This document shows positions 3,356 through 36,596 of a stretch of 50,996 nt of DNA, in pieces. Position numbers and translations under genes: made by a program. The first letter of the stretch is position 1. The number at the start of each line of letters is the position of its first letter. Where the stretch lies: the sequence record SRR31156797_2631; one strand, 5' to 3'. The notes beneath the pieces were generated by a model, which ran no database searches, was not told where the DNA came from, and saw nothing but the letters and a program-made list of their open reading frames with translations.

Positions 3356-4597
3356 TTATGATGAGAATTTTTTCATAACAACCACACCATTAGTTCCACC
3401 AAACCCAAAAGAATTAGAGATAGCAACAATAGGGTTGCTTTCCCTAGCACTTAGTGGAACATAATCAAGATCACACTCTGGAGAGGGAGTATGTAAATTG
3501 ATCGTTGGTGGAATAATACCGGTATGAAGCGTAAGTGCTGTAAAGGCGGATTCAATACCGCCAGCAGCTCCTAACATGTGGCCAGTCATCGACTTTGTTG
3601 AACTAATAGCCAGCTTGTATGCATGTTCTTTAAAAACAGTCTTAATAGCCTGTGTTTCGCATTTATCATTGAGTGGAGTGGATGTTCCGTGGGCATTGAT
3701 ATAATCAACGTCCTCAGGGTTTAATTTGGCATCTCGCAAAGCAGCTGCCATACAACGAGCACCGCCTTCTCCATCTTCAGGAGGGGCAGCAATATGATAA
3801 GCGTCACTTGTCTGCCCGTATCCTATAACTTCAGCGTAGATTGTAGCACCACGTTTTTGAGCTGATTCCAACTCTTCCAGAACCAGCATTCCTGCCCCTT
3901 CGGAAATAATGAATCCATCTCTATCCTTGTCAAAAGGTCTTGAAGCTGAACTTGGATCATCATTGCGAGTAGAAAGGGCCTTCATAGCACTAAACCCACC
4001 AACGGCAAGTGGACAAATAACGGATTCGGTACCGCCTGTTACAGCAACGTCACAATCTCCGTAAACAATATGGCGATAAGCTTCACCAACAGCATGAGTG
4101 CCAGCGGCACAAGCCGTTGTCTGGGTGAGGTTAGGCCCTTTCGAACCAAGACGCATGGAAATGTGACCAGACGGCATATTTGGTATTACACGCGGAATGA
4201 AAAACGGCGTAATTTTTCGAGGTCCCCGGTTCACCATTATTTGGTGATACTCTTCAATTGTTGGCAGACCACCCATGCCACAGCCGGTAATAACCCCAAC
4301 ACGCTCTCGATTGTTATCACTTATGGAAAGGCCGCTGTTTTGCCAGGCCAATTCAGCAGCAGCAATTGCATATTGTACAAATAAATCCAAATTTTTGGAT
4401 TGTTTTTTCTCGAACCAGTCTTCCGCCTTAAAATCATTAACTTCCGCTGCAATTTGCGAAGCATGACCTGTGGCATCAAAACGAGTAATAGGACCTATAC
4501 CGCCACGGCCATTGACCAGACATTCCCATGTCTTGTCTGTTCCTGTACCAAGGGGAGTGACTAATCCGATACCTGTAACAACGACCCTTCTTTTCAC
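3356..4597 (-). CDS. fabF: 3-oxoacyl-ACP synthase II
   Basis: RRVVVTGIG, TACAAG (Cys), NAHGTST, GHMLGAAG, SNSFGFGGTN. Confidence 0.97.
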   Translation of the reverse strand: MKRRVVVTGIGLVTPLGTGTDKTWECLVNGRGGIGPITRFDATGHASQIAAEVNDFKAEDWFEKKQSKNLDLFVQYAIAAAELAWQNSGLSISDNNRERVGVITGCGMGGLPTIEEYHQIMVNRGPRKITPFFIPRVIPNMPSGHISMRLGSKGPNLTQTTACAAGTHAVGEAYRHIVYGDCDVAVTGGTESVICPLAVGGFSAMKALSTRNDDPSSASRPFDKDRDGFIISEGAGMLVLEELESAQKRGATIYAEVIGYGQTSDAYHIAAPPEDGEGGARCMAAALRDAKLNPEDVDYINAHGTSTPLNDKCETQAIKTVFKEHAYKLAISSTKSMTGHMLGAAGGIESAFTALTLHTGIIPPTINLHTPSPECDLDYVPLSARESNPIVAISNSFGFGGTNGVVVMKKFSS

Positions 4598-4614: not shown

Positions 4615-4845
4615 CTATTGAATTTTGGCAACAAAATCGATAGCATTTTGCACTGTTGCTATTTTTTCTGCTTCTTCATCTGGAATTTCAACATCAAATT
4701 CTTCTTCCATAGCCATGATAAGCTCAACCAGATCAAGTGAATCTGCACCAAGATCATCCACGAAAGAGGCTCCAGGAACAACCTTTTCTTTATCTACACT
4801 CAACTGCTCAACGATAATGTCAATCATTTTTGCTTCTACTGCCAT
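4615..4845 (-). CDS. acpP: Acyl carrier protein
   Basis: [15 protein letters not shown] phosphopantetheine site. Confidence 0.98.
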
Positions 4846-4889: not shown

Positions 4890-4929
4890 TAGCAACTCTT
4901 TCAGCGGTGTCAATGCTGAATAGTTGCTA
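4890..4929. repeat. Imperfect stem-loop between fabG and acpP
   Basis: TAGCAACT..TTCAGC / GCTGAA.AGTTGCTA inverted repeat; its arms resemble the GTAACTGTTCAGC end of the palindrome at 50889. Confidence 0.5.
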
Positions 4930-5676
4930 ATTCCCCATATACATGCCACCGTTAACATGAAGGGTTTGACCGGTGAGATAATCACCACCATGAGAAACGA
5001 AAAAAGCAACAGACGCGGCCACATCTTCAGGGGAACCAAGGCGGCCCAAAGGGATTTGCGTTTGAATTGCTTCCTGCACTTCCTGGTCAAGTCCTTCAGT
5101 CATATCGGTAACTATGTATCCGGGTGCCACGCAATTTACAGTAATATTGCGTCCGGCAAGTTCCCTGGCCATGGATTTGGTAAAACCAACAAGACCAGCC
5201 TTAGCTGCACCGTAGTTCACCTGTCCACCATTTCCAAGAAAACCAATAACTGAACTAATATTAACAATTCGTCCCCATTTTTTTTTCATCATAGGACGCA
5301 TTGCAGCTTTACTACAATTAAAGGCACCTTTAAGGTTAGTATCCAGCACATCATCCCAATGAGATTCTTTCATTCGTGCCATCAATCCGTCTCTTGTAAT
5401 GCCAGCATTATTAACCAAAATATCAATACTTCCATACTGATCAATAATAGCTTTTAAATTTTTCTGAACAGCTTCAGCATCGGCAACATTAAACTGACAG
5501 GTAAACCCTTGTCCGCCTTCAGTTGTTATCTGGTCTAAAGTGTCCTCAGCAGCAGTCGGGTTCGAAACATAATTAATGCCGACCATGGCACCCAACGATG
5601 CAAGCTTGATGCACACCGCCCTGCCGATTCCCCTGCTACCTCCAGTAATAAGTGCAACTTTCCCTTCAAGACTCAC
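4927..5676 (-). CDS. fabG: 3-oxoacyl-ACP reductase
   Basis: TGGSRGIG, NNAGITRD, YGAAK. GTG start with GGAGG RBS, overlapping the etfA stop by 11 bp. Confidence 0.96.
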   Translation of the reverse strand: MSLEGKVALITGGSRGIGRAVCIKLASLGAMVGINYVSNPTAAEDTLDQITTEGGQGFTCQFNVADAEAVQKNLKAIIDQYGSIDILVNNAGITRDGLMARMKESHWDDVLDTNLKGAFNCSKAAMRPMMKKKWGRIVNISSVIGFLGNGGQVNYGAAKAGLVGFTKSMARELAGRNITVNCVAPGYIVTDMTEGLDQEVQEAIQTQIPLGRLGSPEDVAASVAFFVSHGGDYLTGQTLHVNGGMYMGN

Positions 5677-6862
5677 TTTTTACCTCCTGAATTCGTTTAA
5701 TAAGAGCAGGGATGACATCGTAAAGATCACCAACAATACCGTAAGTAGCAAAGTCAAAAATAGGTGCATTTGCATCTCGGTTAATGGCGACAACAATATC
5801 AGCAGACTGCATACCAACTGCGTGCTGTATAGCCCCTGATATGCCACAAGCGATATACAACTTGGGATTAACCGTTTTCCCGGTCTGGCCAACTTGGTGT
5901 GGATATGGAATCCAACCTGAATCAACGGCAGCCCGGCTTGCAGCAACCGCAGCGTTAAGTTCGTCGGCTAATTCTCTAATAAGCTCAAACCCTTTTGCAG
6001 AATCAAGCCCCCTTCCACCTGCAACCAATGTCTCAACCTCTTGGATGTTTACCTGATCTTGGTCGCTTAATACCGTATCTAGAATTTCTATCTTGGATTC
6101 TATAGCATTAGGTTGCACAACGATTGATTCCACTGAACCAATACGACTACTGTCGGGTTCAAGGGCAGCCATTACCTTAGGCCTCACTGTCGCCATCTGC
6201 GGCCTCGTATCAGGACACACAATGGTTGCCATTATATTGCCGCCAAAAGCAGGCCGGGTTTGCAGTAGCATCCCGTCACTTTCGCGAATTTCCAAACGAG
6301 TACAGTCTGCAGTCAAACCAGCATCAATTAAAGTTGCAACAAAAGGTATGACGGAACGGCCTATAGCAGTAGCTCCGGCAAGAACAATCTCTGGTTTCTT
6401 GGCGCGAATAATACCCTCAAGCACATGTCCGTAAACATCTTCACGAAATTGTTCAAGGCCATCATGTTCTGCAAGGTAGACATTGTCCGCACCTGCTGCG
6501 ATAAGGGAATCGCTCTGATCAGCAATATCTTTGCCAAGAAGAACAACACTTAGGGCAACTCCTCTGGTGTCAGCGAGTTTTCTCCCTACTCCTAGAAGTT
6601 CATAAGTTACAGGAGCAATGGATCCGTGCCGGCATTCACCAAAAACCATAATTCCAGACCAATCTGAAAAATCATCCTGTACTTTTTTGTCTGCAACTTC
6701 TATGGACAATGCTTCAACTTCACAATTTTCAACGCATGCCCCACAAAGGGTGCAATTATCGTTTACTACAACACAGTCTTCGTCTACATGTATAGCATCG
6801 AAAGGGCAGGAGGATTCGCAAATTCCGCAAACAATACATTTGTCACAGTCTATCTTAAGCAT
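5666..6862 (-). CDS. etfA: Electron transfer flavoprotein alpha subunit with N-terminal 2x[4Fe-4S] ferredoxin domain
   Basis: CIVCGICESSCP and CTLCGACVENC at the N-terminus; GLTADCT, RPAFGGN, QVGQTGK, GISGAIQH. Confidence 0.93.
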   Translation of the reverse strand: MLKIDCDKCIVCGICESSCPFDAIHVDEDCVVVNDNCTLCGACVENCEVEALSIEVADKKVQDDFSDWSGIMVFGECRHGSIAPVTYELLGVGRKLADTRGVALSVVLLGKDIADQSDSLIAAGADNVYLAEHDGLEQFREDVYGHVLEGIIRAKKPEIVLAGATAIGRSVIPFVATLIDAGLTADCTRLEIRESDGMLLQTRPAFGGNIMATIVCPDTRPQMATVRPKVMAALEPDSSRIGSVESIVVQPNAIESKIEILDTVLSDQDQVNIQEVETLVAGGRGLDSAKGFELIRELADELNAAVAASRAAVDSGWIPYPHQVGQTGKTVNPKLYIACGISGAIQHAVGMQSADIVVAINRDANAPIFDFATYGIVGDLYDVIPALIKRIQEVKSES

Positions 6863-6911
6863 GTTCTCGTATCGTTAAATATATAAAACAGAGGTGTGGT
6901 TACATCTTTTT

Positions 6912-7691
6912 TTAAAGATGGGTTTTCAGTTCTTGTACCAACTGATCGACTTGCTCTTCTACTGTACCTGAAAAAAGTGTTCGATCACCTCGGGCCTCAG
7001 GTGAAAAAACACGAACTACCTGAGTAGGTGAACCAGCGAGTCCAAGATTTTGAGGTTCTGCCTTGATATCATCAGCTGAGAGGGTTAGGACTTTAACTTT
7101 TTTAGCCTTCATTTTCCCTTTCAAAGACGCCACACGAGGCTCATTAATATCTTTCACGACAGTCAATAAAGCTGGAAATGGAACCTTAACAACATCAAAT
7201 CCATCATCCATCATCCGCTCGACCGTTATCGAATCCGAAGTCGATTGTCTCGTTTTTTGAACACAAGTAACAAAAGGGACGCCAAGCCTACAGGCGATAC
7301 CAGGACCAACCTGGGCAGTATCACCGTCAATTGCCTGTTTACCGCATAAGGTCAAATCGATACTATCTAAAGTTTCAATTGCTTTCGCCAGGGTATAAGA
7401 AGTAGCCCAGGTATCAGCACCGGCAAACGCACGGTCAGATACAAGCAGAGCTTGGTCAGCACCGCAGGCAATAGCTTCACGTAACACCTCTTCTGCCTGT
7501 GGTGGTCCCATCGTTATGACGGTCACTGCACCACCGTGCTCTTCCTTAAGGGTAACTGCCTCTTCAAGTGCATGTCGATCATATGGATTCATGATCGACT
7601 CGACGCCTTCCCTTGCCAAAGTATTGGTTTCAGGATCAAGTCGTACATCTTTGGCATCCGGTACCTGTTTAATACACACTACTATATTCAT
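6912..7691 (-). CDS. etfB: Electron transfer flavoprotein beta subunit
   Basis: VCIKQVPD, MNPYD, MGPPQA, GADTWAT, GKQAIDGDTAQVGP, INEPR. Confidence 0.95.
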   Translation of the reverse strand: MNIVVCIKQVPDAKDVRLDPETNTLAREGVESIMNPYDRHALEEAVTLKEEHGGAVTVITMGPPQAEEVLREAIACGADQALLVSDRAFAGADTWATSYTLAKAIETLDSIDLTLCGKQAIDGDTAQVGPGIACRLGVPFVTCVQKTRQSTSDSITVERMMDDGFDVVKVPFPALLTVVKDINEPRVASLKGKMKAKKVKVLTLSADDIKAEPQNLGLAGSPTQVVRVFSPEARGDRTLFSGTVEEQVDQLVQELKTHL

Positions 7692-7702
7692 GGGCTCAAA
7701 TA

Positions 7703-8851
7703 TTATGAATATTCTTTATTAAGTTCCTGACCTATCACATTCCGCTGAATCTGGTTTGTGCCTTCATAAATCTGGAGAATTTTGGCATCACGCATCATTT
7801 TTTCTACGGGATACTCTTTCATATAGCCATAGCCACCAAGTACCTGAACGGCATCGGTTGTAACCTTCATCGCCATATCGGTAGCAAAAACCTTGCACAT
7901 CGATGACGCTTTGGACATATTTTTGGGATTACTGGCTATATGCCGTGCTGCCGAATATACAAGTGCTCTGGCAGCTTCCAGTTGGATAGCCATGTCAGCA
8001 AGGATATGCTGAACCGCCTGAAAAGAAACGATGGGTTTACCGAACTGAACACGCTGTTTGGCATAAGTTACCGCCTCATCAAGAGCACCCTGCGCTAGCC
8101 CGACACCAAGAGCGGCGATACCTGGGCGAGAAATATCCAGTGTTTTCATAACCGTTATGAATCCAGTTCCCTTTCTTCCAACCAACCGGTCCTTAGGAAT
8201 TCGACAATCCTTTAAAATTAGTTCTCTGGTGGAAGAAGAACGGATACCCATTTTATCTTCCTTTTTGCCATAAGAGAACCCAGGATCGCCATCTTCAACA
8301 ACGAAAATAGATGCACCACGGGCACCTTTTTGCGGATCAGTTAAGGCTATTATGGTATAAATCTGGGCCTCGCCACCATTAGTTATCCATTGCTTGGTAC
8401 CATTGAGAACCCACTCATCACCATCGAGTATAGCGGTTGTCTGGATACCTGAAGCATCACTTCCTGCGTTTGACTCAGTTAACCCAAAAGCAGCATATTT
8501 TTCACCAGTTGCAATGGATGGCAAGTATTTCTGTTTGAGTTCGTCACTTCCCGCAATAAGAACAGGGTAGATACCAAGGGCACTTGCTGCAAAGCTGGTT
8601 GCTATGCCAACACACCCCCTTGAGAGTTCTTCCAGTGCAAGAGATATGTCAAAACAGCCGCCGCCGAAACCACCATATTCTTCAGGAATAAAAATGCTGA
8701 AAAGATCAGCTTTGGCAATATCCTTTAAAATTTCCCGAGGAAATTCATTTTTTTCATCAAGTTCGGCTCGAACAGGGATGATCTTCTCGTTGGTAATTTC
8801 CCGGGCGGTATCAACGATCATCTGTTGTTCTTCAGTTAAAAAATACTCCAC
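7703..8851 (-). CDS. Acyl-CoA dehydrogenase, butyryl-CoA dehydrogenase (Bcd)-like
   Basis: FGLTESNAGSDA, LNGTKQWITNG, KMGIR, QVLGGYGY, IYEGTNQIQR (catalytic Glu). Confidence 0.93.
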   Translation of the reverse strand: MEYFLTEEQQMIVDTAREITNEKIIPVRAELDEKNEFPREILKDIAKADLFSIFIPEEYGGFGGGCFDISLALEELSRGCVGIATSFAASALGIYPVLIAGSDELKQKYLPSIATGEKYAAFGLTESNAGSDASGIQTTAILDGDEWVLNGTKQWITNGGEAQIYTIIALTDPQKGARGASIFVVEDGDPGFSYGKKEDKMGIRSSSTRELILKDCRIPKDRLVGRKGTGFITVMKTLDISRPGIAALGVGLAQGALDEAVTYAKQRVQFGKPIVSFQAVQHILADMAIQLEAARALVYSAARHIASNPKNMSKASSMCKVFATDMAMKVTTDAVQVLGGYGYMKEYPVEKMMRDAKILQIYEGTNQIQRNVIGQELNKEYS

Positions 8852-8870
8852 GAGTCTCTCCTTGGTGTTT

Positions 8871-9848
8871 TTACCAACGCATAAGTAACGATGCCCAGGT
8901 CAAACCGGCACCAAAAGTACACAGCAGAACAAGGTCATTTTCCTTGATTCCTCCCTGCCTATTGGCCTCATCCAGAGCGATCGGGATGCTGGCAGCAGAT
9001 GTATTGCCGTACTTGTCTACGTTGATAAATAATTTTTCATCGGGAATTTCCAGTCTTTTCTGCAGTTTGTTCAAAATTCTGATATTTGCCTGGTGCGGTA
9101 TGACCAGATCAACATCTTTAATGGTCAACTGCTGCTGCTCCAATAGTTCAACAACGACATCCTCCATAGCACGCACGGCATGCTTAAAGATATCACCGCC
9201 GTTCATTCGGATTAAGGCACCTTCCCAGTCACTACTCTGTAGGTCAGGATTTTGGCTTTCAGGCCCATCCATATGCAGGAGGTTCCAGAGGCGCCCGTCT
9301 GAATGCAGTTTACTTCCTAAAATACCGCGAGTGTCGCCACTGCCACCAAGTACTGCTGCTCCAGCACCATCTCCAAAAAGAACGCATGTATTTCTGTCCT
9401 TCCAGTCGACCTTAGTTGACAGAGTTTCAGACCCAATAACCAACACCTTCATCTCCGGTTGGCATTGAATATATTTACTCGCCAAATCAAGGCCATAGGT
9501 AAATCCTGTGCAGGCAGCATTAATATCATAGGCAAAGGCATTGGCTGCACCGAGTTCTGACTGAACAAAACAGGCCGTTGATGGCATAATTTTATGTGGG
9601 GACAGAGTCGCCACAATGATCATGTCCAACGCGAGTGGCGAGAGGCCAGCCATTTCCAAGGCGCGTTGCCCTGCAGTAGTGGCTAGTCTAAAATTCTCTT
9701 CGCCTTCTCCTGATATTCGTCTAGTCTTTATACCTGTCCTGCTGGTAATCCATTGATCAGAGGTGTCAACTATCTGTTCAAGTTCAGCATTAGTCAACGC
9801 TTTTTGGGGCAAGCAAGAGCCTGTCCCTACAATTACTGCTTTACTCAT
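8871..9848 (-). CDS. fabH: 3-oxoacyl-ACP synthase III
   Basis: DTSDQWITSRTGI, AACTGF (Cys), PHQAN (His), GNTSAAS (Asn). Confidence 0.96.
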   Translation of the reverse strand: MSKAVIVGTGSCLPQKALTNAELEQIVDTSDQWITSRTGIKTRRISGEGEENFRLATTAGQRALEMAGLSPLALDMIIVATLSPHKIMPSTACFVQSELGAANAFAYDINAACTGFTYGLDLASKYIQCQPEMKVLVIGSETLSTKVDWKDRNTCVLFGDGAGAAVLGGSGDTRGILGSKLHSDGRLWNLLHMDGPESQNPDLQSSDWEGALIRMNGGDIFKHAVRAMEDVVVELLEQQQLTIKDVDLVIPHQANIRILNKLQKRLEIPDEKLFINVDKYGNTSAASIPIALDEANRQGGIKENDLVLLCTFGAGLTWASLLMRW

Positions 9849-9871: not shown

Positions 9872-10876
9872 TTATTGCCGAAGCCCCTGTACAATGACAT
9901 CATTAACCTTGTTACATACCATATCTGATGCCACTCTTATGGCATTACGGATAGCGGTAGCATTGGATGTCCCATGACAAATAATGCCCGTCCCATTTAT
10001 GCCAAGTAATGGCGCACCACCATATTCAGCATAATCAACCTGCTTGCGAAAGTCAGCAAAGGCCTTGCGAATAAACAGATATCCGATCTTGGCACGCCAG
10101 GTTTTCATAATTTCTTTTTTCAGCATCTGCGTGGCTGCTTCGGCGAGTCCTTCACTAATTTTTAGTGAAATATTGCCGACAAACCCATCACAGACAATCA
10201 CATCCACATCACCTTTATAGACATCCCTTCCTTCTACATTACCAACAAAGTTAAGAGATCCATGCTGAAGCAGATCGTAGGTTTCTTTGACAAGCGCGTT
10301 CCCCTTTCCAGTTTCTTCACCAATACTGAGTAAACCGATCCGAGGAGATTTAATATTTAGCAAAAGACTGGAACATGATGAAGCCATAACAGCAAATTGA
10401 TAAAGATGCTGCGGACGGCAATCGACATTAGCACCTATATCCATTAACATAACAGGACGTTGCAACGTAGGGAAAAAGCTGGCAATTCCAGGTCTTGAGA
10501 CACCGGCAAGACGCCCCAACTTTCGAACCCCTGCAGCTAACGTAGCTCCTGAGTTCCCAGCGGACACTACAGCATCTGCATTGCCAGACTTAACCAAATC
10601 AAACCCCACCATAACGGTGGAGTTCTTTTTCTTTCGTACAGCGTCGACTGGAGATTCATCCATCCCTACAACCTCGGGAGCATGTTGAATCTTTAATCGT
10701 TCTGATATGTTTGCAGGTTTACCTGTTACAGCTATTGCGAGTTGACCACGGAGGAAATCTTCAGGACCGACCAATAAAACTTCCAGATCCTTTTGCTCTT
10801 CAACAGCTGCAATAGCTCCTTGAATAAGCATTTCCGGTCCATGATCCCCACCCATGGCATCGAGAGCTATTCGCAC
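9872..10876 (-). CDS. plsX: Phosphate acyltransferase PlsX
   Basis: IALDAMGGD, SAGNSGA, DIGANVD, CDGFVGN, YGGAPLLG. Confidence 0.97.
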   Translation of the reverse strand: MRIALDAMGGDHGPEMLIQGAIAAVEEQKDLEVLLVGPEDFLRGQLAIAVTGKPANISERLKIQHAPEVVGMDESPVDAVRKKKNSTVMVGFDLVKSGNADAVVSAGNSGATLAAGVRKLGRLAGVSRPGIASFFPTLQRPVMLMDIGANVDCRPQHLYQFAVMASSCSSLLLNIKSPRIGLLSIGEETGKGNALVKETYDLLQHGSLNFVGNVEGRDVYKGDVDVIVCDGFVGNISLKISEGLAEAATQMLKKEIMKTWRAKIGYLFIRKAFADFRKQVDYAEYGGAPLLGINGTGIICHGTSNATAIRNAIRVASDMVCNKVNDVIVQGLRQ

Positions 10877-10885
10877 AGTTGTCGC

Positions 10886-11074
10886 CTAATTAAGTTCATC
10901 CTCTAATTGGATAACATTTTTCCCTTTATAGACACCGCACCCACCACAAAGTTGGTGCAGCATTTTAGGTTCACCACATTCCGGACACTTACTTACACTT
11001 GGACGACCAAGTGCATCGTGGGCTCGTCTTTGTCTGGTGCGTGATCGGGAATGTCTTCTTTTAGGTAAGGCCAT
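10886..11074 (-). CDS. rpmF: 50S ribosomal protein L32 (zinc-binding form)
   Basis: MALPKRRHS...RRAH, CPECG...HQLCGGCGVY; canonical position upstream of plsX. Confidence 0.95.
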   Translation of the reverse strand: MALPKRRHSRSRTRQRRAHDALGRPSVSKCPECGEPKMLHQLCGGCGVYKGKNVIQLEDELN

Positions 11075-11139: not shown

Positions 11140-11661
11140 TCAATTATTTCTTTTTAAACGAGAAAGCACTGCAAACGGTGACTCGGTAATAGTATTTTCG
11201 CAATCACAAACAGCATCATTCAAATTATTACCACACCGGTTACAAATGCCTTTGCATCCAGAGGAACATAGATTTTTTTGGGGCAACGCCAATTCAATTT
11301 GCTGACGAAAAACGTCGTCGCAGTCTATCAAGGGTTCGTCCAAAAAAACTGTATCCATCTCACTGGATGTGCATTCAACTTCCTTAAGTTGCCACTTCTC
11401 AGTATCACCTGTTTCAAATAAAATGTGAAAGGAGGTGTCAATAGGGTAGGCAAATGGTACCAGGCAACGGTCACAGTTGACAACAGCTGTGACGATCAGG
11501 GTTCCACTCATTTCAACCTGATTGTCATTTTTCCTCTTCAAGGAAAAGGAAAACCGACTTTCACCTTCAAGGGAAACGCTCTCAACCTGCTCTAAGCCTG
11601 TAACTTCAAATAGTTCAAACTGATTCCCATGGGGTGAAATCTCGTTAAATCGAAGGCGCAT
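11140..11661 (-). CDS. yceD: YceD/DUF177 family protein
   Basis: CDRCL and LC..GCKGIC..CG.NLN...C.C motifs, C-terminal PFAVL; sits upstream of rpmF. Confidence 0.9.
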   Translation of the reverse strand: MRLRFNEISPHGNQFELFEVTGLEQVESVSLEGESRFSFSLKRKNDNQVEMSGTLIVTAVVNCDRCLVPFAYPIDTSFHILFETGDTEKWQLKEVECTSSEMDTVFLDEPLIDCDDVFRQQIELALPQKNLCSSGCKGICNRCGNNLNDAVCDCENTITESPFAVLSRLKRNN

Positions 11662-16120: not shown

Positions 16121-16822
16121 CTACCACCTCTTACGAAACCACTCCTGTACATATTCGATGTGTTCTCGCATCGCCTCCTCGGCAGCATCAGGCTGCCTAT
16201 TAGCAATCGCATCATAAACCTTTGTGTGGGCAGCCAAAACAATATCAATATTATCAGGATCATCCCATAGATGGCTCAGATTCTTTTTAATTCCCAAAAA
16301 AAGCAGATCGTAAAAATTCCTCATCAAGTGAATCTGCACCGGATTTTTGGTGGCAAAGCTGATCGCCATATGAAAAGCTGCATCAGCCTCATTACCGAGG
16401 GCACCGTTTTTCACGGTTTCTTCCATCTCCTTGTTAGCTTTCGACAAATTAAGGATATCCTGCGGCGTCGCTCGGGATGCGGCCATCCTGGCAGCATTAC
16501 ACTCAAGCCCAAGCCGTACCTCCAGCAAGTCGTGAATGGTAACTTCATCAATAGCAAGCATCGTTGCTAATGGGTTCCCCTGGTCTCCGTTAGGGGTCGT
16601 TACAAAAGTACCCTGCCCTTGCCGGTGTTCAAGCAGCCCTAGAGTTACCAGCTTATTAATGGCATTGCGCACTGTCGTTCGGCTGACTTCAAGACTGGTT
16701 GCAAGTTCACGCTCTGGAAGCAATTGCTCCCCCGGCTTTAATTCGCCGCGATAAATGAGCTCACGTATCTGTTCAAAAACCTGATCAGAAATCCTTTTGG
16801 GTTTAATCGGGCGTAAATTCAT
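16121..16822 (-). CDS. GntR/FadR-family regulator (LldR/PdhR/GlcC-like)
   Basis: LKPGEQLLPERELA..LEVSRTTVR..I..L...G...RQGQGTFV wHTH plus FCD domain (ADAAFH, H..VY.AI). Start at MNLRPIKPKR with GAGGA RBS, 7 bp after the glcF stop. Confidence 0.9.
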   Translation of the reverse strand: MNLRPIKPKRISDQVFEQIRELIYRGELKPGEQLLPERELATSLEVSRTTVRNAINKLVTLGLLEHRQGQGTFVTTPNGDQGNPLATMLAIDEVTIHDLLEVRLGLECNAARMAASRATPQDILNLSKANKEMEETVKNGALGNEADAAFHMAISFATKNPVQIHLMRNFYDLLFLGIKKNLSHLWDDPDNIDIVLAAHTKVYDAIANRQPDAAEEAMREHIEYVQEWFRKRW

Positions 16823-16829
16823 ACATTCC

Positions 16830-18125
16830 TCAGGAAATTGATTCCGCATACAGTTCAACAAAATGTTTAACAGGTATACTGTCGCCCTGCTGTGACAGCA
16901 TATCAGATACCTGCATCATACACGCAGGGCAACCGGTTGCTACCACATCACACTCTGTTTTGACAATAGCATTTCTCTTTTTGAAACCAATACTACGTGA
17001 GATATCATAGTATTGAACGTTAAAACTGCCTCCCATGCCACAGCAAGAGTCAGCACCCTCCATTTCAACGAGTTGGTAACCTACAGAAGCACCAATGAGC
17101 TGACGAGGCTCCTTGAAGACCCCCAAGGATTTCCTCAGATGGCACGGATCATGATAGGTGACCTTTAATGCATCATTTTTTACTTCTAGCTGTTCCTTTA
17201 CACCCAGTTTACCGACAAGCAGTTCACTGATATCGAGAGTTTTCTTCACAATATCCTCAAGCAATGCCCTGTCTTCTCCGCTAAGATCGGTTAGCATCTC
17301 CGGCCAAATTTCTTTGATAGTAGAAGTACAGGTTCCACAGGAGGTAACCAACACATCAAACTCCTCTTTCCTGTACAGGTCAAGGGTATGCAAAGCTAAT
17401 TTTCTCATTGTTACAACATCACCAGAAGCAATAGCGGGTATTCCACAACACCCCTGCCCTTTCGGTAGAAATATTCCAACCCCATGGTGTCCAAGAACTT
17501 TGATCGTTGCATGAGCTATATCTGGGAACACCTTATCTATAACGCACCCTGTAAAGATTGCTGCGCGCAGCCCTGATTCCCCTGCTGGTGTTGAAATATT
17601 TTCCACCACCTTGTGAAACGGTTTGTCAGCCAACTTTCTAAAATGTCGCCCCCCTATCAACGGTGCTGCAATTGTTGCGCAGGAAGTACCAACCGTTTCA
17701 TTTACCTTCTTAGTAAACACCCCTTGAAAATTCCCCCCCCATTCAATGAGGGTATCAAAAAGCTTTGGCTTTGAAAGTAAACCGCGAAAAATAACTTTTT
17801 TAAGGGGAGAAAGGCCTGAATAACCAGTGAGTATGGTCCGGGCCTTTAAAAATATCTGAGACAATTCAACCCCGGATGGACAGTTGGCCTCACAGGAACC
17901 ACAAAGCAGACATTTTTGCAACCTTTCCCGAGCTCCACCCACATCTGTAAGCATGGTCTCCATAAGTCCATCAACCAGTGCCAGCTTGCCGCGTGCCACG
18001 TCTGCTTCCTTTCCTGTCTGGCCATATACAGGACAGACTGCCTGACACATACCACATCGCATGCAGACAATCACCTGATCTTCCAGTTCCTTCATCATGC
18101 GGGCTAAATCTTGTATTTCTGACAT
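16830..18125 (-). CDS. Fe-S (CCG-domain) subunit of glycolate/D-lactate dehydrogenase, GlcF-like
   Basis: CMRCGMCQAVCP, CLLCGSCEANCP, two CCG motifs, YHDPCHL, TGCPAC. Confidence 0.88.
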   Translation of the reverse strand: MSEIQDLARMMKELEDQVIVCMRCGMCQAVCPVYGQTGKEADVARGKLALVDGLMETMLTDVGGARERLQKCLLCGSCEANCPSGVELSQIFLKARTILTGYSGLSPLKKVIFRGLLSKPKLFDTLIEWGGNFQGVFTKKVNETVGTSCATIAAPLIGGRHFRKLADKPFHKVVENISTPAGESGLRAAIFTGCVIDKVFPDIAHATIKVLGHHGVGIFLPKGQGCCGIPAIASGDVVTMRKLALHTLDLYRKEEFDVLVTSCGTCTSTIKEIWPEMLTDLSGEDRALLEDIVKKTLDISELLVGKLGVKEQLEVKNDALKVTYHDPCHLRKSLGVFKEPRQLIGASVGYQLVEMEGADSCCGMGGSFNVQYYDISRSIGFKKRNAIVKTECDVVATGCPACMMQVSDMLSQQGDSIPVKHFVELYAESIS

Positions 18126-18127
18126 GA

Positions 18128-19510
18128 CTACCTCCCTAGCACTTTGCCGGGGTTGAGAATATTTTTAGGATCAAGTGCCGCTTTAATTTTTTTTGAATAA
18201 TCAATCGTAGCAACAGACGTTTCCTGCACAAGATACTTGGACTTCATGGTCCCTGTTCCGTGTTCCCCGGAAATGGTTCCATCAAAGCCTAACGCCTTTT
18301 CAAAAATCTTATCTATTGCCTGCTCGACTCGTCCCCATTCACTCTTATCGCGTTTATCGGTAAGAATCGTAGGGTGTAAATTACCGTCACCAGCATGTCC
18401 AAAAGTGCCGATTAAGAGATCAAACTCAGCTGCAATCTCATCAACGGCCTGTACCATGGCTGGGATTTTCGAACGTGGGACAGTCGCGTCCTCCAACACC
18501 AGGGTCGGCCTCAATTTAGCCAAAGAGGAAAGTGCGGCCCTCCTTGCTGCCCAGATAGCATCTCTTTCACTCTCATCAGCAGCGACTTTCAAATCCCTGA
18601 CGCCCATCTCCTCACATATACGGCGAACCGTTTCGGCATCATCAGCAACCTGTCCGGGGTGACCATCTACCTCTATCAAAAGCAGGGCTGCAGCATCGAT
18701 CGGCAGCCCCGCCTTGCTAAAATCTTCAACCGCCCTGATAGTTACATTATCCATAAACTCCAAAGTCGCAGGCACCACTTTACTGGCGATAATCCGGGCA
18801 ACGGTTTCCGAGGCACGATGTATACTTTCAAAAATAGCGAGCATGGATCGTCGATCTTGAGGCGGAGGAATCAGTTTCAGCGTAACGGTATTATACACAC
18901 CAAGAGTCCCCTCAGATCCAACCAGAAGCCCCCCCAAATTATACCCAGACGCGCACTTCACGGTCCTGGCACCGGTTTTCACAAGCTGCCCCTCTGCATC
19001 AAAAAAATCCATAGCCATTACATAATCACGGGTTACTCCATACTTTAACCCTCGCAGCCCGCCTGCATTTTCTGCCACATTACCGCCAAGGGTAGATATA
19101 GCCTGGCTCCCGGGGTCTGGCGGGTAAAACAAACCAGCCTTCTCCACTTCATGTGCAAATTGTGCTGTAATCACTCCAGGTTGTACGACTGCGAGCAAAT
19201 CTTCCTGATTAAGTTCCACTATTTTATTGAGTCCGGTGGTCAATACCACCACCCCACCCGGATCAGGGACCGTCCCCCCGCTCAAGTTACTCCCTGCACC
19301 ACGGACAGTTATCGGCAGGTTATTTTCACTGCAAAGGACTATTGCCTGCCCCAAGGCTTCACTGTCAACTGGCCTGAGAACGAAACCGGGCATCACTTGT
19401 TCTGTAGGGGCCGAGTCGTAAGAATAAGTTAGCAAATCAGCCTCTTCAAAAAATACATTTTCCACACCCAGCACATCCTGAAACTTTTCCACTAAACTCT
19501 GCCGGCTCAT
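18128..19510 (-). CDS. FAD-linked oxidase, GlcD/D-lactate dehydrogenase catalytic subunit
   Basis: RGAGSNLSGG, YPPDPGS, GGNVAENAGG, GSEGTLG, GHAGDGNLHP, SGEHG. Start at MSRQ with AGGAGGAG RBS. Confidence 0.9.
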   Translation of the reverse strand: MSRQSLVEKFQDVLGVENVFFEEADLLTYSYDSAPTEQVMPGFVLRPVDSEALGQAIVLCSENNLPITVRGAGSNLSGGTVPDPGGVVVLTTGLNKIVELNQEDLLAVVQPGVITAQFAHEVEKAGLFYPPDPGSQAISTLGGNVAENAGGLRGLKYGVTRDYVMAMDFFDAEGQLVKTGARTVKCASGYNLGGLLVGSEGTLGVYNTVTLKLIPPPQDRRSMLAIFESIHRASETVARIIASKVVPATLEFMDNVTIRAVEDFSKAGLPIDAAALLLIEVDGHPGQVADDAETVRRICEEMGVRDLKVAADESERDAIWAARRAALSSLAKLRPTLVLEDATVPRSKIPAMVQAVDEIAAEFDLLIGTFGHAGDGNLHPTILTDKRDKSEWGRVEQAIDKIFEKALGFDGTISGEHGTGTMKSKYLVQETSVATIDYSKKIKAALDPKNILNPGKVLGR

Positions 19511-19558
19511 TGTCGACTCCTCCTTGCTCACTTAAAATTGGACTAACACGTACAGATA

Positions 19559-19573
19559 ATTGGTAATACCAAT
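19559..19573. promoter_or_regulatory. FadR-family (PdhR/LldR-type) operator 1
   Basis: ATTGGTA-A-TACCAAT palindrome matching the known AATTGGTnnnACCAATT consensus, ~50 bp upstream of the glcD-like start. Confidence 0.8.
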
Positions 19574-19666
19574 CATGGAAATCCGGAAACAAACTTCTAC
19601 ACAAAAGCCACCGTCACACCAGTTACCTTACTAATATCATGTTATTTTTATTTATCAAGTTTTTTC

Positions 19667-19695
19667 TTGACTGCTACCGTTTTCAGTGCTATGGA
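19667..19695 (+). promoter_or_regulatory. Putative sigma70 promoter for dctPQM
   Basis: TTGACT-17 bp-TATGGA with a TG extension; abuts operator 2. Confidence 0.5.
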
Positions 19696-19710
19696 ATTGG
19701 TTATACCAAT
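19695..19710. promoter_or_regulatory. FadR-family (PdhR/LldR-type) operator 2
   Basis: AATTGGTTATACCAAT, a second copy of the same palindrome, over the predicted dctP transcription start. Confidence 0.8.
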
Positions 19711-19797
19711 AGAGAGGTCTACAAAAAAGACCCTCGCCGCCAAAATTCCATACAGGGTTTATGGCTATTTACTTTCCCATCTAAAGGAGGCTTTTCA

Positions 19798-20949
19798 ATG
19801 AAACGGTTCTTAATGGCAATGTTAACCGTCGGGCTTGCATTTGGTCTGTCGGCAAACGGTGCTGATGCTGCTAAGCGTGAGAAATTCGGTATTGATGCAC
19901 GTCACAAGGAAGCAAAACGTGTTAATTTTAAGCCTTCACAAGAAAAGGTCCGATGGAAGATGGTCATGCCATGGTCCAAAGGGTTGCTTTTTTATGACAT
20001 CGCAGTTCACTTTGCTGACAGTGTTCGCCTTGCGTCAGCAGGAAGACTTGACATTAAACCGTTTTCAGCAGGCGAACTTGTTCCTGCCGGCCAGGTATTT
20101 GATGCGGTAAGTAAAGGTTCAGTGCAGATTGCTCATGCCTCACCGCTTTACTGGAAGGGTAAAAATGAGGCGTTTGTTGCCTTTGCTTCCGTACCTTTTG
20201 GCATGGACGCGGAAGCCTACAACATCTGGATGACCCAACGCGGCGGCCAGGAAATGCTCAATGAACTGTACAAACCTTATGGACTGATCGCATTTCCTGC
20301 AGGTCAAACCGGCCAGGAAATGGGGCTCTTTTCCAATAAACGCGCCACCAAAATGGAAGATTTCAAAGGGATGCGTATTCGTACCCCTGGCTGGTATATG
20401 GATATCATGAATAACCTTGGCGCCTCTGTAAGCCCATTGCCAGGCGGCGAAGTATACCTTGCGCTTGAACGAGGTGTTATTGATGCAGCAGAATACTCAA
20501 CCCCGGCAATCAATTACCCCATGGGTTTTGATGAGATCACCAAATATGCCATTCAGCCAGGTGCACATCAGACAGCTTTCCAATGCGACATTATTATAAA
20601 TCAGGAAGCATGGGAAAAACTGCCCAAGGATCTGCAGTGGATAGTAAAAATGGCTGCCGCCGAAACCCACGCTTGGGCTTATGACTGGATTAACTCTTTG
20701 AATGCAGATGCCATGAAAAAATTCAAAGAAAAAGTGGAAATCGTAAAGCTTGAGCCAGAAACCTTAATCGAATTCCGTAAAACTACTAAAACCTACCTTG
20801 ACGGTCTGAAAGCGAAACACGCAGATGTCAAAAAGGTGCTTGATTCCCAGGAAACGTTTCTCAGTGATTATGCAGAATGGCGTGAAGCACGAAGCGGTGT
20901 AACCCCATGGCCATATGAGACCTACATTTCAGGAAAAACCACAGAATAA
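19798..20949 (+). CDS. dctP: TRAP transporter substrate-binding protein (TakP/lactate-2-oxoacid type)
   Basis: AAGGAGG RBS then signal peptide MKRFLMAML...ADA; WKMVMPW, AGELVP, MRIRTPG (conserved Arg), LERGVIDAAE. Confidence 0.9.
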   Translation: MKRFLMAMLTVGLAFGLSANGADAAKREKFGIDARHKEAKRVNFKPSQEKVRWKMVMPWSKGLLFYDIAVHFADSVRLASAGRLDIKPFSAGELVPAGQVFDAVSKGSVQIAHASPLYWKGKNEAFVAFASVPFGMDAEAYNIWMTQRGGQEMLNELYKPYGLIAFPAGQTGQEMGLFSNKRATKMEDFKGMRIRTPGWYMDIMNNLGASVSPLPGGEVYLALERGVIDAAEYSTPAINYPMGFDEITKYAIQPGAHQTAFQCDIIINQEAWEKLPKDLQWIVKMAAAETHAWAYDWINSLNADAMKKFKEKVEIVKLEPETLIEFRKTTKTYLDGLKAKHADVKKVLDSQETFLSDYAEWREARSGVTPWPYETYISGKTTE

Positions 20950-20963
20950 CAATTCGCCCTACG

Positions 20964-20997
20964 CCACGGCCCTGTTCCTTAATGGACAGGGCCGTGG
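20964..20997 (+). other. Intergenic stem-loop after dctP (mRNA stabiliser or attenuator)
   Basis: CCACGGCCCTGT / ACAGGGCCGTGG 12-bp perfect stem without a U-tract. Confidence 0.65.
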
Positions 20998-21043
20998 TGC
21001 ACAACCACAAACTACACCCAGTCCAAAACATTGAGGTGCGTAT

Positions 21044-21565
21044 ATGTTTCAACGGTTATCACGATGGATCGACAAGTTCATTACCGTGCAGGGCGAGTGG
21101 ACATCACTGCTTATCCTTCCCCTCCTTCTTGTCGTTATTTATGAAGTGGCCATGCGGTATGGTTTCAACGCACCAACTGTTTGGGGTTTTGAGGCTACAA
21201 CATTTCTTTATGGTCTTCATTTTATGTTCGGCATCTCTTATACAGATGTCACTGGTGGACATGTCAAAGTCGACATTTTCACTCAACCTGCCCCTAAAAA
21301 AGTTCAAGCGTTTTTAGGCGCTTTAACCACTTTTGTTTTTTTCCTACCGGTAATGGCCTGCCTAACTTGGTATGCCATCGAATTTGCTTTTGCATCAGCT
21401 ATAGATCTTGAACGAAATCCAACCAGCTGGGCACCTCCGATCTATCCTTTAAAAATCATCATGGCATTATGCCTTCTATTTTTATTGTTGCAAGGTATCT
21501 CCAATCTCATCCGTGATCTCTCTATCCTTTTTGGCAAAAGAGATATTGACACCAAGGAGGCATAA
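21044..21565 (+). CDS. dctQ: TRAP small permease
   Basis: 4 TM; YEV.MRY.FNAPT.W, GHVKVDIF. Confidence 0.92.
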   Translation: MFQRLSRWIDKFITVQGEWTSLLILPLLLVVIYEVAMRYGFNAPTVWGFEATTFLYGLHFMFGISYTDVTGGHVKVDIFTQPAPKKVQAFLGALTTFVFFLPVMACLTWYAIEFAFASAIDLERNPTSWAPPIYPLKIIMALCLLFLLLQGISNLIRDLSILFGKRDIDTKEA

Positions 21566-22908
21566 TGAGCCCTGAATTTTTAACCGTTGCCATGTTTGCC
21601 ACTCTCATTGGCGCAATTGTACTTGGCCACCCACTCGCCTATACTCTGGCTGCAGTGGCCACCCTTTTTGGCCTTATTGATAATGGATTCGATATAGCCG
21701 GCCTGTTTCTCATGTTTGCCAACAATGCCTGGGGACTCATGAACAACTATGTACTGGTTGCGATTCCCCTCTTTATCTTGATGGCACAACTCCTGGACCG
21801 GTCTAAAGTATCGGAGTCCCTCTTTGAAGCACTTTACATTGTTCTAGGCTCTGTTAAAGGTGGACTGGGACTGGCTGTAGTCGTTGTCTGTACAGTTTTT
21901 GCAGCAACAACAGGAATCATTGGCGCGTCAGTCGTGGCCATGGGGTTGCTGGCAACGCCAGCGTTACTCAAAAAGGGTTACCAGAAAGACCTCACCGCCG
22001 GTATCATCTGTGCAGCCGGAACCCTTGGCATACTCATCCCACCAAGCATCATGATGGTTGTATACGGAGGGTTAACCGGACTAAAGGAAACCAGTGTGGG
22101 TAATCTTTTTGCCGGTGCTATTTTCCCAGGTCTGCTACTTGCCGGATTATACTTCCTCTATATCTTTGTTCTCTGTAACCTCAAACCGGAACTCGGGCCC
22201 CCTATCTCCAAAGAAGAAGCTAAGCAATGGTCAGCATCTCAAAAGTGGGGCATGACTCTCAAATCACTGATCCCCCCCCTGGCACTTATCCTGGCTGTAA
22301 TGGGTACAATCCTTGCCGGGGTAGCAACACCTACAGAAGCAGCGGGCCTTGGCGCACTTGGTGCCATGATTCTTGCGTTTCTCAATAAAAAACTCAACTG
22401 GACCGTCATAAGGGATTCAAGTCATGCCACCCTGAAAACAACAGCAATGGTAATGATGCTGTTTGTTGGCGGTAAATTCTTCAGCACTGTTTTTCTTTCT
22501 ATGGGAGGCGGGGATGTTGTAGCAGACTTGCTTATCGGCAGTGGGCTCAACAGGTGGACAGTGCTCCTCATAATGATGGCTATTGTCTTTCTCATGGGTA
22601 TGTTCATTGACTGGGCTGCAATTTTGCTTGTCACCGTGCCCATCTTCATGCCCATTGCCATGGAGCTTGAATTCAACCCGCTGTGGTTCTCTATTTTAAT
22701 GTGTGTTAATCTGCAAACCTCCTTTCTGACCCCACCGTTTGGGTATGCATTGTTTTACTTCAAAGGAGTTGCCCCTTCTGGATATTCCATGATGCACATC
22801 TACAAAGGCATCATGCCATTCGTGTTATTACAGATTGTTGGCCTTGTTCTCTTGTGCCTGTTCCCCACTATAGTTACGTATCTACCGGAACTCTTTTTCG
22901 GCAGCTAA
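21565..22908 (+). CDS. dctM: TRAP large permease
   Basis: LVAIPLFILM, AGTLGILIPPSIMM, TPTEAA, LTPPFG. Confidence 0.94.
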   Translation: MSPEFLTVAMFATLIGAIVLGHPLAYTLAAVATLFGLIDNGFDIAGLFLMFANNAWGLMNNYVLVAIPLFILMAQLLDRSKVSESLFEALYIVLGSVKGGLGLAVVVVCTVFAATTGIIGASVVAMGLLATPALLKKGYQKDLTAGIICAAGTLGILIPPSIMMVVYGGLTGLKETSVGNLFAGAIFPGLLLAGLYFLYIFVLCNLKPELGPPISKEEAKQWSASQKWGMTLKSLIPPLALILAVMGTILAGVATPTEAAGLGALGAMILAFLNKKLNWTVIRDSSHATLKTTAMVMMLFVGGKFFSTVFLSMGGGDVVADLLIGSGLNRWTVLLIMMAIVFLMGMFIDWAAILLVTVPIFMPIAMELEFNPLWFSILMCVNLQTSFLTPPFGYALFYFKGVAPSGYSMMHIYKGIMPFVLLQIVGLVLLCLFPTIVTYLPELFFGS

Positions 22909-27368: not shown

Positions 27369-27634
27369 GGATCGTTTTCTGCCGTCAGCACAGCTCCTAT
27401 CTCAGCCAGAGCGGGTTTGGCCTGCTGTCCGGATAAGATCACCTGGACTTCACTTCCATGAACTAAGGCCATGGAAAGTACGTCGAGGATAGAGTCACAA
27501 TTGACTTGAATGCCATTGTGTGAAAGTAGCACATCCACTTCAAATTCAAGGGCAATTTCTGCCAACTTGGTGGCCACCCGTCCATGTACGCCCTTAGCGT
27601 TACCTATGATATATGAAGCTGTTACCTGGCTCAC
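27365..27634 (-). CDS. ptsH: HPr-family phosphocarrier
   Basis: N..GVHGRVA (His15 region) and SILDVLSM (Ser46 region); ATGA overlap with ptsI. Confidence 0.88.
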   Translation of the reverse strand: MSQVTASYIIGNAKGVHGRVATKLAEIALEFEVDVLLSHNGIQVNCDSILDVLSMALVHGSEVQVILSGQQAKPALAEIGAVLTAENDP

Positions 27635-28005
27635 TTTATTCTGCGGATTCCCTTTTTAATTTGACCAGGCACATTGACTTTTACCACTTCAGGCTGAGCG
27701 TCATGATCTTCCAGACTAAAATCAACTGCCTGAATAAAACGCCCCTCTCCCCCCATGGTAAAAATCTCTTGCCCCGTAAATTGTGGTGTACGAAGGGTCC
27801 AGGTAACCTCCTGCAAAGGAATACTTAAAAACTGCATGGTTACATGCCACCATTCATTTTTCCTGCTGTCATCGCGTTCTATTTTACTGACAACTGCATA
27901 CGTTAAAAGCTGCGGTTCTTTGGCAGCCACAATAACCACATCTCCGATAACCGTTGTCTGTTTAAAAGGGAGAATTTCTTTAAGATCAGCTACTAGTTTT
28001 TCCAT
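27631..28005 (-). CDS. Hypothetical protein
   Basis: 124-aa ORF with a GTGA overlap onto ptsH; no family recognised. Confidence 0.7.
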   Translation of the reverse strand: MEKLVADLKEILPFKQTTVIGDVVIVAAKEPQLLTYAVVSKIERDDSRKNEWWHVTMQFLSIPLQEVTWTLRTPQFTGQEIFTMGGEGRFIQAVDFSLEDHDAQPEVVKVNVPGQIKKGIRRIK

Positions 28006-36455: not shown

Positions 36456-36596
36456 TTCTTGATGCTCCTGGGATTGCTCTATCTTCAAAGAAGGGAAAGA
36501 AGAGTATAGGAATAGGGAGAGCCAAACGATAAGTGAAAAAAGGGTCTGCTTCGAGGGTGAACCGATACATTAAAAAAAGTGTGATCAAATAATAAC

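Follow-up and report, generated by a model that had tools for sequence, protein, structure and literature searches.

A candidate enoyl-ACP reductase in a fatty-acid synthesis operon

The window analysed here is a 50,996-nucleotide stretch of DNA from sequence record SRR31156797_2631, in which a gene set for type II fatty-acid synthesis (FAS-II) contains a three-gene module encoding an acyl-CoA dehydrogenase family protein (ACAD) and both subunits of an electron-transferring flavoprotein (ETF), the small EtfB and a large EtfA with a ferredoxin domain (Fd-EtfA). Having compared the module with solved structures, with related loci and with genomes that do or do not carry known enoyl-acyl carrier protein (enoyl-ACP) reductases, we lean towards the view that the complex serves FAS-II as an enoyl-ACP reductase that draws on NADH and reduces ferredoxin, and that in the Desulfobulbus lineage it probably duplicates the role of FabL. 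A broader proposal is advanced tentatively, the arguments for it seeming to us nearly as strong as those against: that the complex represents a new structural class, a bifurcating enoyl-ACP reductase that is the sole one in many strict anaerobes and yields one reduced ferredoxin per elongation cycle, so that lipid synthesis would partly repay its ATP cost. As part of that proposal, the sole-reductase role would be clearest for Nitrospirota free of FabI and FabK and would extend to members of at least seven other phyla. A literature search, mostly of titles and abstracts, found no paper tying an ACAD/Etf complex to FAS-II enoyl reduction; the literature drawn on, in part, was PMC4916218, PMC5317091, PMC8626469, PMC8085960 and PMC11153573.

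Conserved placement of the module among FAS-II genes

The window DNA belongs to a Desulfobulbaceae bacterium, a relative of Desulfobulbus, and its ACAD shares 88% identity with the ACAD of an uncultured Desulfobulbus metagenome-assembled genome (MAG). Genes were named by Pfam and NCBIfam profile matches (Table 1), and the order that an earlier note on this DNA had read from the letters, plsX-fabH-ACAD-etfB-etfA-fabG-acpP-fabF with gaps under 50 bp round the inserted genes and an 11-bp overlap of etfA and fabG, proved correct in every detail. The intervals are 23 nt (plsX-fabH), 19 (fabH-ACAD), 11 (ACAD-etfB), 49 (etfB-etfA), -11 (etfA-fabG), 81 (fabG-acpP) and 17 (acpP-fabF), the spacing around the three module genes running from -11 to 49 nt. 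Promoter-like sites (21 in the operon versus 16.2 +/- 4.2 in shuffled sequence) and terminator-like sites (12 versus 8.2 +/- 3.5) were both at background level. The order plsX-fabH-fabD-fabG-acpP-fabF, which the note had called usual, was seen in the E. coli K-12 record and in three Desulfobacterota genomes; it is not the order of the window, where fabD is missing and ACAD-etfB-etfA follows fabH. In Pfam scans of all open reading frames (ORFs) of at least 110 aa, the rest of the window showed no gene of the fabD, fabZ, FabI/FabL, FabK/NMO or FabV type, and tblastn of the window with FabD and FabI of E. coli and a relative's FabL-like, NMO-like and FabZ-like proteins matched fabG alone, bearing out the absence of fabD, fabZ and fabI/K/V that had been noted from the ORFs.

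The arrangement was then compared among relatives of the ACAD. With one genome taken per species, at least 595 relatives were found and the best 80 (61-88% identity) were examined; neighbouring genes were mapped by tblastn with the window proteins and E. coli FabD, on the same strand and within 8 kb, and several of these loci end directly beside the ACAD gene. We found that ACAD lies on the same strand as, and within 8 kb of, fab genes in 49 of the best 80 loci, which span Desulfobulbales, other Thermodesulfobacteriota, Nitrospirota, Margulisiibacteriota, Saganbacteria and unclassified MAGs. Among the 49, etfBA adjoins in 37 and no etf match adjoins in 12; the rest of the 80 comprise 14 with etfBA alone and 17 with neither fab nor etf, and at one locus (L069) fabD-like, fabG and fabF genes lie just beyond the 8-kb limit. 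The complete window order is repeated in L001-L026 (Desulfobulbales and Thermodesulfatator relatives), and of the 48 related loci where etfA was matched, 46 have a match that takes in the ferredoxin domain. A fast IQ-TREE tree of ACAD tracks phyla, its well-supported branches forcing at least seven changes of the fab+etf label. Because the arrangement reappears in 49 of 80 related loci, it is not due to chance, and the embedding of the module in the FAS-II operon, first seen in the window, is conserved across phyla.

The module had been described as inserted in the fabD slot. This holds as a position, not as a replacement: fabD sits between etfA and fabG in Nitrospirota (L028, L029, L035, L036 and L038) and Margulisiibacteriota (L051), giving the order fabH-ACAD-etfB-etfA-fabD-fabG, and both fabD and fabZ occur elsewhere in the genomes of four Desulfobulbales relatives (G001-G004). 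Hence the module is an insertion after fabH. A different order, plsX-ACAD-fabD-fabG, was found in L074 and L075. Modules not linked to fab genes stand in housekeeping neighbourhoods; for the stand-alone Nitrospirota ACAD loci, a linkage to accA-D/accBC was considered and rejected, the neighbours being hpt, queD and pmbA.

The module proteins resemble bifurcating complexes

All three ACAD Pfam domains (PF02771, PF02770 and PF00441, the N-terminal, middle and C-terminal domains) were matched above their cut-offs in the ACAD, whose predicted catalytic Glu lies within a conserved YEGT motif and aligns with the Glu of its closest solved structure, C. difficile Bcd (5ol2_C, 398 bits). Among solved structures, the five nearest to EtfB all come from bifurcating or confurcating complexes (CarD 260, 5ol2_B 239, LctB 234, 4kpu_B 232 and 7koe_A 222 bits), versus at most 100 bits for non-bifurcating ETFs (mitochondrial and Paracoccus). 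The search with EtfA gave the same ranking, with the bifurcating group first; EtfA aligns over its full length (residues 2-394) with CarE (6fah_A, 416 bits), ferredoxin domain included, and its translation contains two CxxCxxCxxxC motifs. These alignments place EtfB and EtfA in the bifurcating ETF group and not with the AMP-holding respiratory ETFs. The structure matches and Fer4 families likewise support the earlier assignment to a CarCDE-type Bcd/EtfAB module whose EtfA carries a ferredoxin domain, and ACAD-EtfB-EtfA is of the Bcd/EtfAB-CarCDE kind and outside every characterised substrate family. The three proteins have no homology to FabI/FabL/InhA, FabK or FabV, belonging instead to the ACAD and ETF families, so that the module, if it is an enoyl-ACP reductase, would be a new structural class of that enzyme.

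We infer both enoyl-ACP reduction and bifurcation to ferredoxin, and the proposed mechanism would run as follows. ACAD, EtfB and the ferredoxin-domain EtfA would form a single flavoprotein complex, co-transcribed with the FAS-II genes and acting as the FAS-II enoyl-thioester reductase, most likely on trans-2-enoyl-ACP. By homology, NADH would reduce the bifurcating FAD on EtfB; one electron would pass through the FAD of EtfA to that of ACAD and on to the enoyl thioester, and the other would reach ferredoxin or flavodoxin by way of the two [4Fe-4S] clusters in the N-terminal domain of EtfA. Overall, the reaction would be 2 NADH + Fd(ox) + enoyl-ACP -> 2 NAD+ + Fd(red) + acyl-ACP, returning one low-potential electron pair per elongation cycle. 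In lineages without FabI, FabK and FabL the complex would be the only enoyl reductase; in the Desulfobulbus lineage it would probably work alongside a FabL-type enzyme.

The module excludes FabI and FabK in Nitrospirota

If the module acts as an enoyl-ACP reductase, it should be anti-correlated with the known reductases. Genome-wide counts were made in genomes of relatives, many of them MAGs. Among 61 Nitrospirota genomes, 25 carry an ACAD ortholog (66-71% identical, single copy), 32 carry FabI (39-52% identical to E. coli FabI) and 4 carry FabK above cut-off; ACAD occurs together with FabI or FabK in none, FabI and FabK occur together in one, and one genome has none of the three. This exclusion, the perfect anti-correlation expected of an enoyl-ACP reductase, gave a Fisher p of 3e-16, uncorrected for relatedness. 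Furthermore, 24 of the 25 genomes with ACAD also have an Fd-EtfA ortholog, which was found in none of the 36 genomes without ACAD. In Nitrospirota, Fd-EtfA is frequently on a different contig from ACAD or hundreds of kb away, and its tracking of ACAD despite this lack of linkage shows that the two go together as a functional unit.

In ten further genomes with ACAD, from lineages outside the samples counted here, there was no FabI and no FabK above cut-off, and two had a FabL-like match; at the thresholds used, four genomes of other phyla (G147, G151, G154 and G155) have the module and no other reductase candidate. FabV (PF12241) was found in 0 of 61 Nitrospirota and 0 of 81 Desulfobacterota genomes, a result that is uninformative as the control matched in no genome.

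Points against the proposal and rival explanations

Several results weigh against an enoyl-ACP reductase, beginning with the catalytic subunit: ACAD is about 55% identical to true butyryl-CoA dehydrogenase, and its top family matches are all CoA-dependent enzymes, the first in NCBIfam being acryloyl-CoA reductase AcrC (442 bits, below the cut-off of 640). The module might be a short-chain enoyl-CoA reductase acting on crotonyl- or acryloyl-CoA, with the butyryl- or propionyl-CoA product priming FabH, an explanation that we regard as quite unlikely. It would fit the closest solved relative, a butyryl-CoA dehydrogenase, the acryloyl-CoA reductase subunits that head the NCBIfam matches (all below cut-offs) and the position of fabH directly upstream of ACAD; Desulfobulbus also makes propionate and odd-chain fatty acids. 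Against this, no thiolase, hbd, crt or CoA-transferase genes stand beside the module in any inspected locus, including those not linked to fab genes, the module is kept in phyla that share no fermentation type, and genomes whose sole candidate is the module would still be left without a reductase for the elongation cycle.

The predicted acyl pocket also speaks against a shallow C4 site. When ACAD residues 60-140 are aligned without gaps to human MCAD, A84 corresponds to MCAD Gln95 and A88 to Glu99, and the start of helix E in ACAD (A84-T-S-F-A88-A-S-A) is rich in small residues, of which A88 and A89 are kept in at least 90% of 36 orthologs. The corresponding segment reads Q95-T-A-I-E99 in human MCAD and I-L-S-A-H, one residue shorter, in C. 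difficile Bcd. The VLCAD structure paper is said to describe MCAD Gln95 and Glu99 as the floor of the cavity and as glycines in VLCAD. The LCAD structure paper relates cavity size to the beginning of helix E and to the presence of small residues in that segment. Taken together, the residues give a weak hint that the ACAD pocket may be deeper than that of butyryl-CoA dehydrogenase, a C4 enzyme.

The co-occurrence pattern outside Nitrospirota was less favourable. A short-chain dehydrogenase/reductase (SDR) of the FabL type was found in all four Desulfobulbales relatives, with 333-368 bits against the NF005975 cut-off of 328 and with the Tyr-x6-Lys motif of enoyl-ACP reductases, so that the module is not required as sole reductase in Desulfobulbales; the suggestion that it replaces FabI was not borne out in this lineage, where it is probably redundant with FabL. 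The FabL-type gene is always paired with a DUF362/Npun_F2552-family gene of about 310-330 aa, and metK lies nearby in two of the four (G001 and G002). This paired gene had been considered as fabD, an identification rejected on its DUF362/Npun_F2552 family. When contigs of run X1, a possible source sample of the window, were compared with the FabL-like/DUF362 locus of G001 at 80% likeness, patches of 36-44 nt alone were recovered, a result that speaks neither for nor against FabL in the window organism. The earlier note had coupled a canonical reductase elsewhere with non-conserved synteny as speaking against its proposal; the relatives do hold such a reductase, and the synteny is conserved (49 of 80 loci).

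In a sample of 81 Desulfobacterota genomes, 34 have an ACAD ortholog (at least 61% identity). These 34 gave one FabI-like match (38%), no FabK above cut-off, six FabL-range matches (two with an internal stop) and five FabK-like matches of 305-345 bits, and in 14 of them no other reductase candidate was detected at the thresholds used. The 47 genomes without the module include 13 with FabI or FabK above cut-off and at least 13 with no detectable reductase. By strict criteria, FabI or FabK above cut-off was present in 1/34 module genomes versus 13/47 others (p = 0.006); when FabL-like proteins and FabK-like proteins of at least 300 bits were added, the figures became 12/34 versus 22/47 (p = 0.36) and complementarity was gone. 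Three of these genomes with no detectable reductase (G089, G080 and G103) carry the canonical operon yceD-rpmF-plsX-fabH-fabD-fabG-acpP-fabF without ACAD (L099, L100 and L101, respectively). They had no FabI/FabL at E 1e-18, no FabK-family match above 127 bits, no ACAD relative at E 1e-30 or better and no FabV in an uncontrolled search; relaxed searches gave a weak NMO-like protein at most. Since genomes without a detectable reductase also exist without the module, having no known reductase is by itself no pointer to the module. Among 71 Clostridia genomes, full-length Fd-EtfA was found in eight, four of which also have FabK above cut-off and one FabI; G190, G191 and G223 combine an ACAD ortholog adjoining EtfA with FabK, and about 25 of the 71 have neither a known reductase nor the module. 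Complementarity is therefore weaker and threshold-dependent in Desulfobacterota and absent in Clostridia.

A rival explanation is that the module is accessory or redundant. The real enoyl-ACP reductase would then be a different protein, which in Desulfobulbales would be the FabL-type SDR and otherwise an enzyme not yet recognised, and the module would serve as a housekeeping NADH:ferredoxin device on some enoyl-thioester, lying near fab genes for co-regulation. The FabL-like protein of all four Desulfobulbales relatives and the joint presence of FabK and module in three Clostridia genomes agree with it, and the Desulfobacterota and Clostridia genomes with neither known reductase nor module indicate that undetected reductases or FAS-free lifestyles exist. 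We nevertheless judge this explanation unlikely: ACAD is placed within the fab operon at 49 of the 80 loci, which come from different phyla, the exclusion of FabI and FabK is perfect in 61 Nitrospirota genomes, and no other candidate was seen in 14 Desulfobacterota module genomes and four genomes of other phyla.

A further group of proteins bears on both a hidden reductase and the direction of the ACAD reaction. Weak FabK-family matches occur in many module genomes, and an NMO-family match was found in 21 of the 25 module-bearing Nitrospirota. NMO-like proteins as a hidden FabK were considered and rejected: the one Nitrospirota protein compared with solved structures, from genome G005 (L090:3953-5056, 367 aa), is far nearer H. 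pylori FabX (7e1q, 227 bits) than FabK (73 bits). NMO-like proteins of the Desulfobulbales relatives (L088, L089 and L091) contain a CX3CX3CX4C motif, and the Desulfobulbus protein scored at an equal level on FabK and FabX. By these scores the NMO-like proteins appear to be poor candidates for a hidden reductase. Published work describes H. pylori FabX as a [4Fe-4S]/FMN enzyme that dehydrogenates and isomerises acyl-ACP on the way to unsaturated fatty acids; it dehydrogenates decanoyl-ACP ('backtracking') and can yield a cis-3 intermediate. Strict anaerobes commonly have FabX-like proteins of the NMO family that carry cysteine clusters at the C-terminus, though H. pylori FabX needs O2 as final acceptor.

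FabX also provides a precedent, as a flavoenzyme on decanoyl-ACP giving a cis-3 intermediate, for the alternative that the module introduces double bonds anaerobically, ACAD dehydrogenating or isomerising acyl-ACP by similar 'backtracking' with Etf as electron acceptor; dehydrogenation is, moreover, the usual direction of ACAD chemistry. This alternative, which the earlier note had raised, is weakened by the FabX-like proteins already present in the same genomes (the NMO-family matches of Nitrospirota and the NMO-like proteins of Desulfobulbales). In addition, acyl-thioester oxidation through a bifurcating Etf would be expected to use up reduced ferredoxin, though FabZ already supplies trans-2-enoyl-ACP. 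We consider it very improbable.

Features of the locus and of related genomes

The operon genes and the FabL-type genes of the relatives are collected in Table 1. Downstream of fabF, ORF listing and family scans identified rpiB, nrdR and ribD.

Table 1. Positions of the operon features in the window and of FabL-type genes in Desulfobulbales relatives
Feature	Position	Strand	Match or remark
yceD	11140-11661	-	upstream of rpmF
rpmF	10886-11074	-	upstream of plsX
plsX, phosphate acyltransferase, first lipid gene of operon	9872-10876	-	TIGR00182 372 bits (cut-off 243); PF02504
fabH, beta-ketoacyl-ACP synthase III	8871-9848	-	TIGR00747 403 bits (cut-off 292)
ACAD, acyl-CoA dehydrogenase family, 382 aa, proposed catalytic subunit (enoyl-thioester reductase)	7703-8851	-	three ACAD Pfam domains
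etfB, small ETF subunit, bifurcating type, proposed NADH/beta-FAD site	6912-7691	-	PF01012
etfA, large ETF subunit, 398 aa	5666-6862	-	PF01012, PF00766, Fer4 families
etfA N-terminal 2x[4Fe-4S] ferredoxin domain, residues ~1-60	6683-6862	-	Fer4 dicluster
fabG, 3-oxoacyl-ACP reductase	4927-5676	-	NF004197 335.5 bits (cut-off 332); TIGR01830 330 bits (cut-off 298)
acpP, acyl carrier protein	4615-4845	-	NF002149 115 bits (cut-off 106)
fabF, beta-ketoacyl-ACP synthase II	3356-4597	-	TIGR03150 643 bits (cut-off 494)
FabL-type genes of G001-G004	L082:3989-4744, L083:3992-4744, L085:4001-4735, L086:3995-4747		

Elsewhere in the window, a full-length c-di-GMP-I-GGC riboswitch aptamer (RF03167, 36619-36693, minus strand) scored 72.6 bits against a gathering threshold of 59. 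Some 130 nt downstream of the aptamer follows a 666-aa ORF for a GMC oxidoreductase (34488-36488, minus strand); such an enzyme under c-di-GMP control is unusual. A 449-aa fusion (22999-24348, minus strand) joins an ion-channel pore (Ion_trans_2) to TrkA-N, TrkA-C and a C-terminal response-regulator receiver. Two minus-strand ORFs, of 570 aa (28068-29780) and 124 aa (27631-28005), matched no Pfam family at E <=1e-5 and stand between a PtsI-like PEP-utilising enzyme and comM. At 16121-22908, genes for a GntR/FCD regulator, a GlcD-like FAD oxidase and a CCG/Fe-S subunit are divergent from a DctPQM TRAP transporter; this region is probably a unit for uptake and oxidation of a hydroxy acid (lactate or glycolate).

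Among the relatives, G001 has a second lipid cluster (L084:93-8679) with genes for an OleC-like ligase, a haloalkane-dehalogenase-like hydrolase, a KAS III-like protein (PRK09258), a FabI-like SDR under all cut-offs, FabZ-like and FabG-like proteins and two CrtI/carotenoid-isomerase-like oxidoreductases, which may be an olefin or polyene lipid pathway. The neighbouring ORFs of a FabI-like gene in G002 (L087:3941-4756) are similar in size to those of this cluster.

Significance

The enoyl-ACP reductase sets the pace of bacterial fatty-acid synthesis and is targeted by drugs (triclosan, isoniazid, afabicin); the known enzymes are FabI, FabL, FabK, FabV and InhA. Reduction of the enoyl thioester (about -10 mV) by NADH wastes about 60 kJ/mol, part of which, if the proposal is true, could be saved as reduced ferredoxin. 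The module would then add a class of enoyl-ACP reductase with an unrelated fold, explain the lipid synthesis of many anaerobes without FabI or FabK, and show flavin-based electron bifurcation in use in anabolism, beyond fermentation. It would also bear on the lipid hydrogen-isotope signals of sulfate reducers and on the engineering of energy-efficient fatty-acid production.

Comparison with known systems

The Bcd-EtfAB complexes of C. difficile (5OL2) and Acidaminococcus fermentans (4KPU/4L1F) comprise the same three families in the same order, ACAD-etfB-etfA. With the C. difficile complex the window proteins score 398 (ACAD, 5ol2_C), 239 (EtfB, 5ol2_B) and 281 bits (EtfA, 5ol2_A), and the catalytic Glu is kept. 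However, the EtfA subunits of Bcd-EtfAB have no N-terminal ferredoxin domain, their alignments beginning at residue 71 of the window EtfA, and the helix-E segment of Bcd is unlike that of the window ACAD. Bcd-EtfAB operons serve butyrate fermentation, whereas the window module stands between fabH and fabG.

CarCDE, the caffeyl-CoA reductase-Etf of Acetobacterium woodii (6FAH), reduces a phenylacrylate CoA ester in caffeate respiration and provides the top solved match for both EtfA (CarE, 416 bits) and EtfB (CarD, 260 bits). CarC is merely the 20th-best solved match of the window ACAD (324 bits), and no caffeate-pathway genes were seen at the window locus. In AcrABC of Clostridium propionicum (NF042970-NF042972), AcrC (442 bits) and AcrA (333 bits) are the top NCBIfam matches for ACAD and EtfA, and AcrB is the second-best for EtfB (246.5 bits). 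The equivalog cut-offs of 640 (AcrC), 475 (AcrB) and 600 (AcrA) are all missed by wide margins, indicating that the window proteins are not members.

Carrier-protein thioesters can be substrates for enzymes of the ACAD fold, as illustrated by MbtN, the mycobactin acyl-ACP dehydrogenase, and by RedW and PigA, which are prolyl-peptidyl carrier protein dehydrogenases. The window ACAD scored 81, 256 and 236 bits on the MbtN, RedW and PigA models, far under the cut-offs of 700, 650 and 500, and these enzymes oxidise their substrates and belong to secondary metabolism, unlike the role proposed here. With FabI, FabL and InhA (SDR), FabK (FMN TIM barrel) and FabV, finally, the module shares the proposed reaction and the position in the FAS-II gene set; it differs from them in its unrelated ACAD and ETF fold, its three subunits, its FAD and Fe-S cofactors and its presumed second product, reduced ferredoxin.

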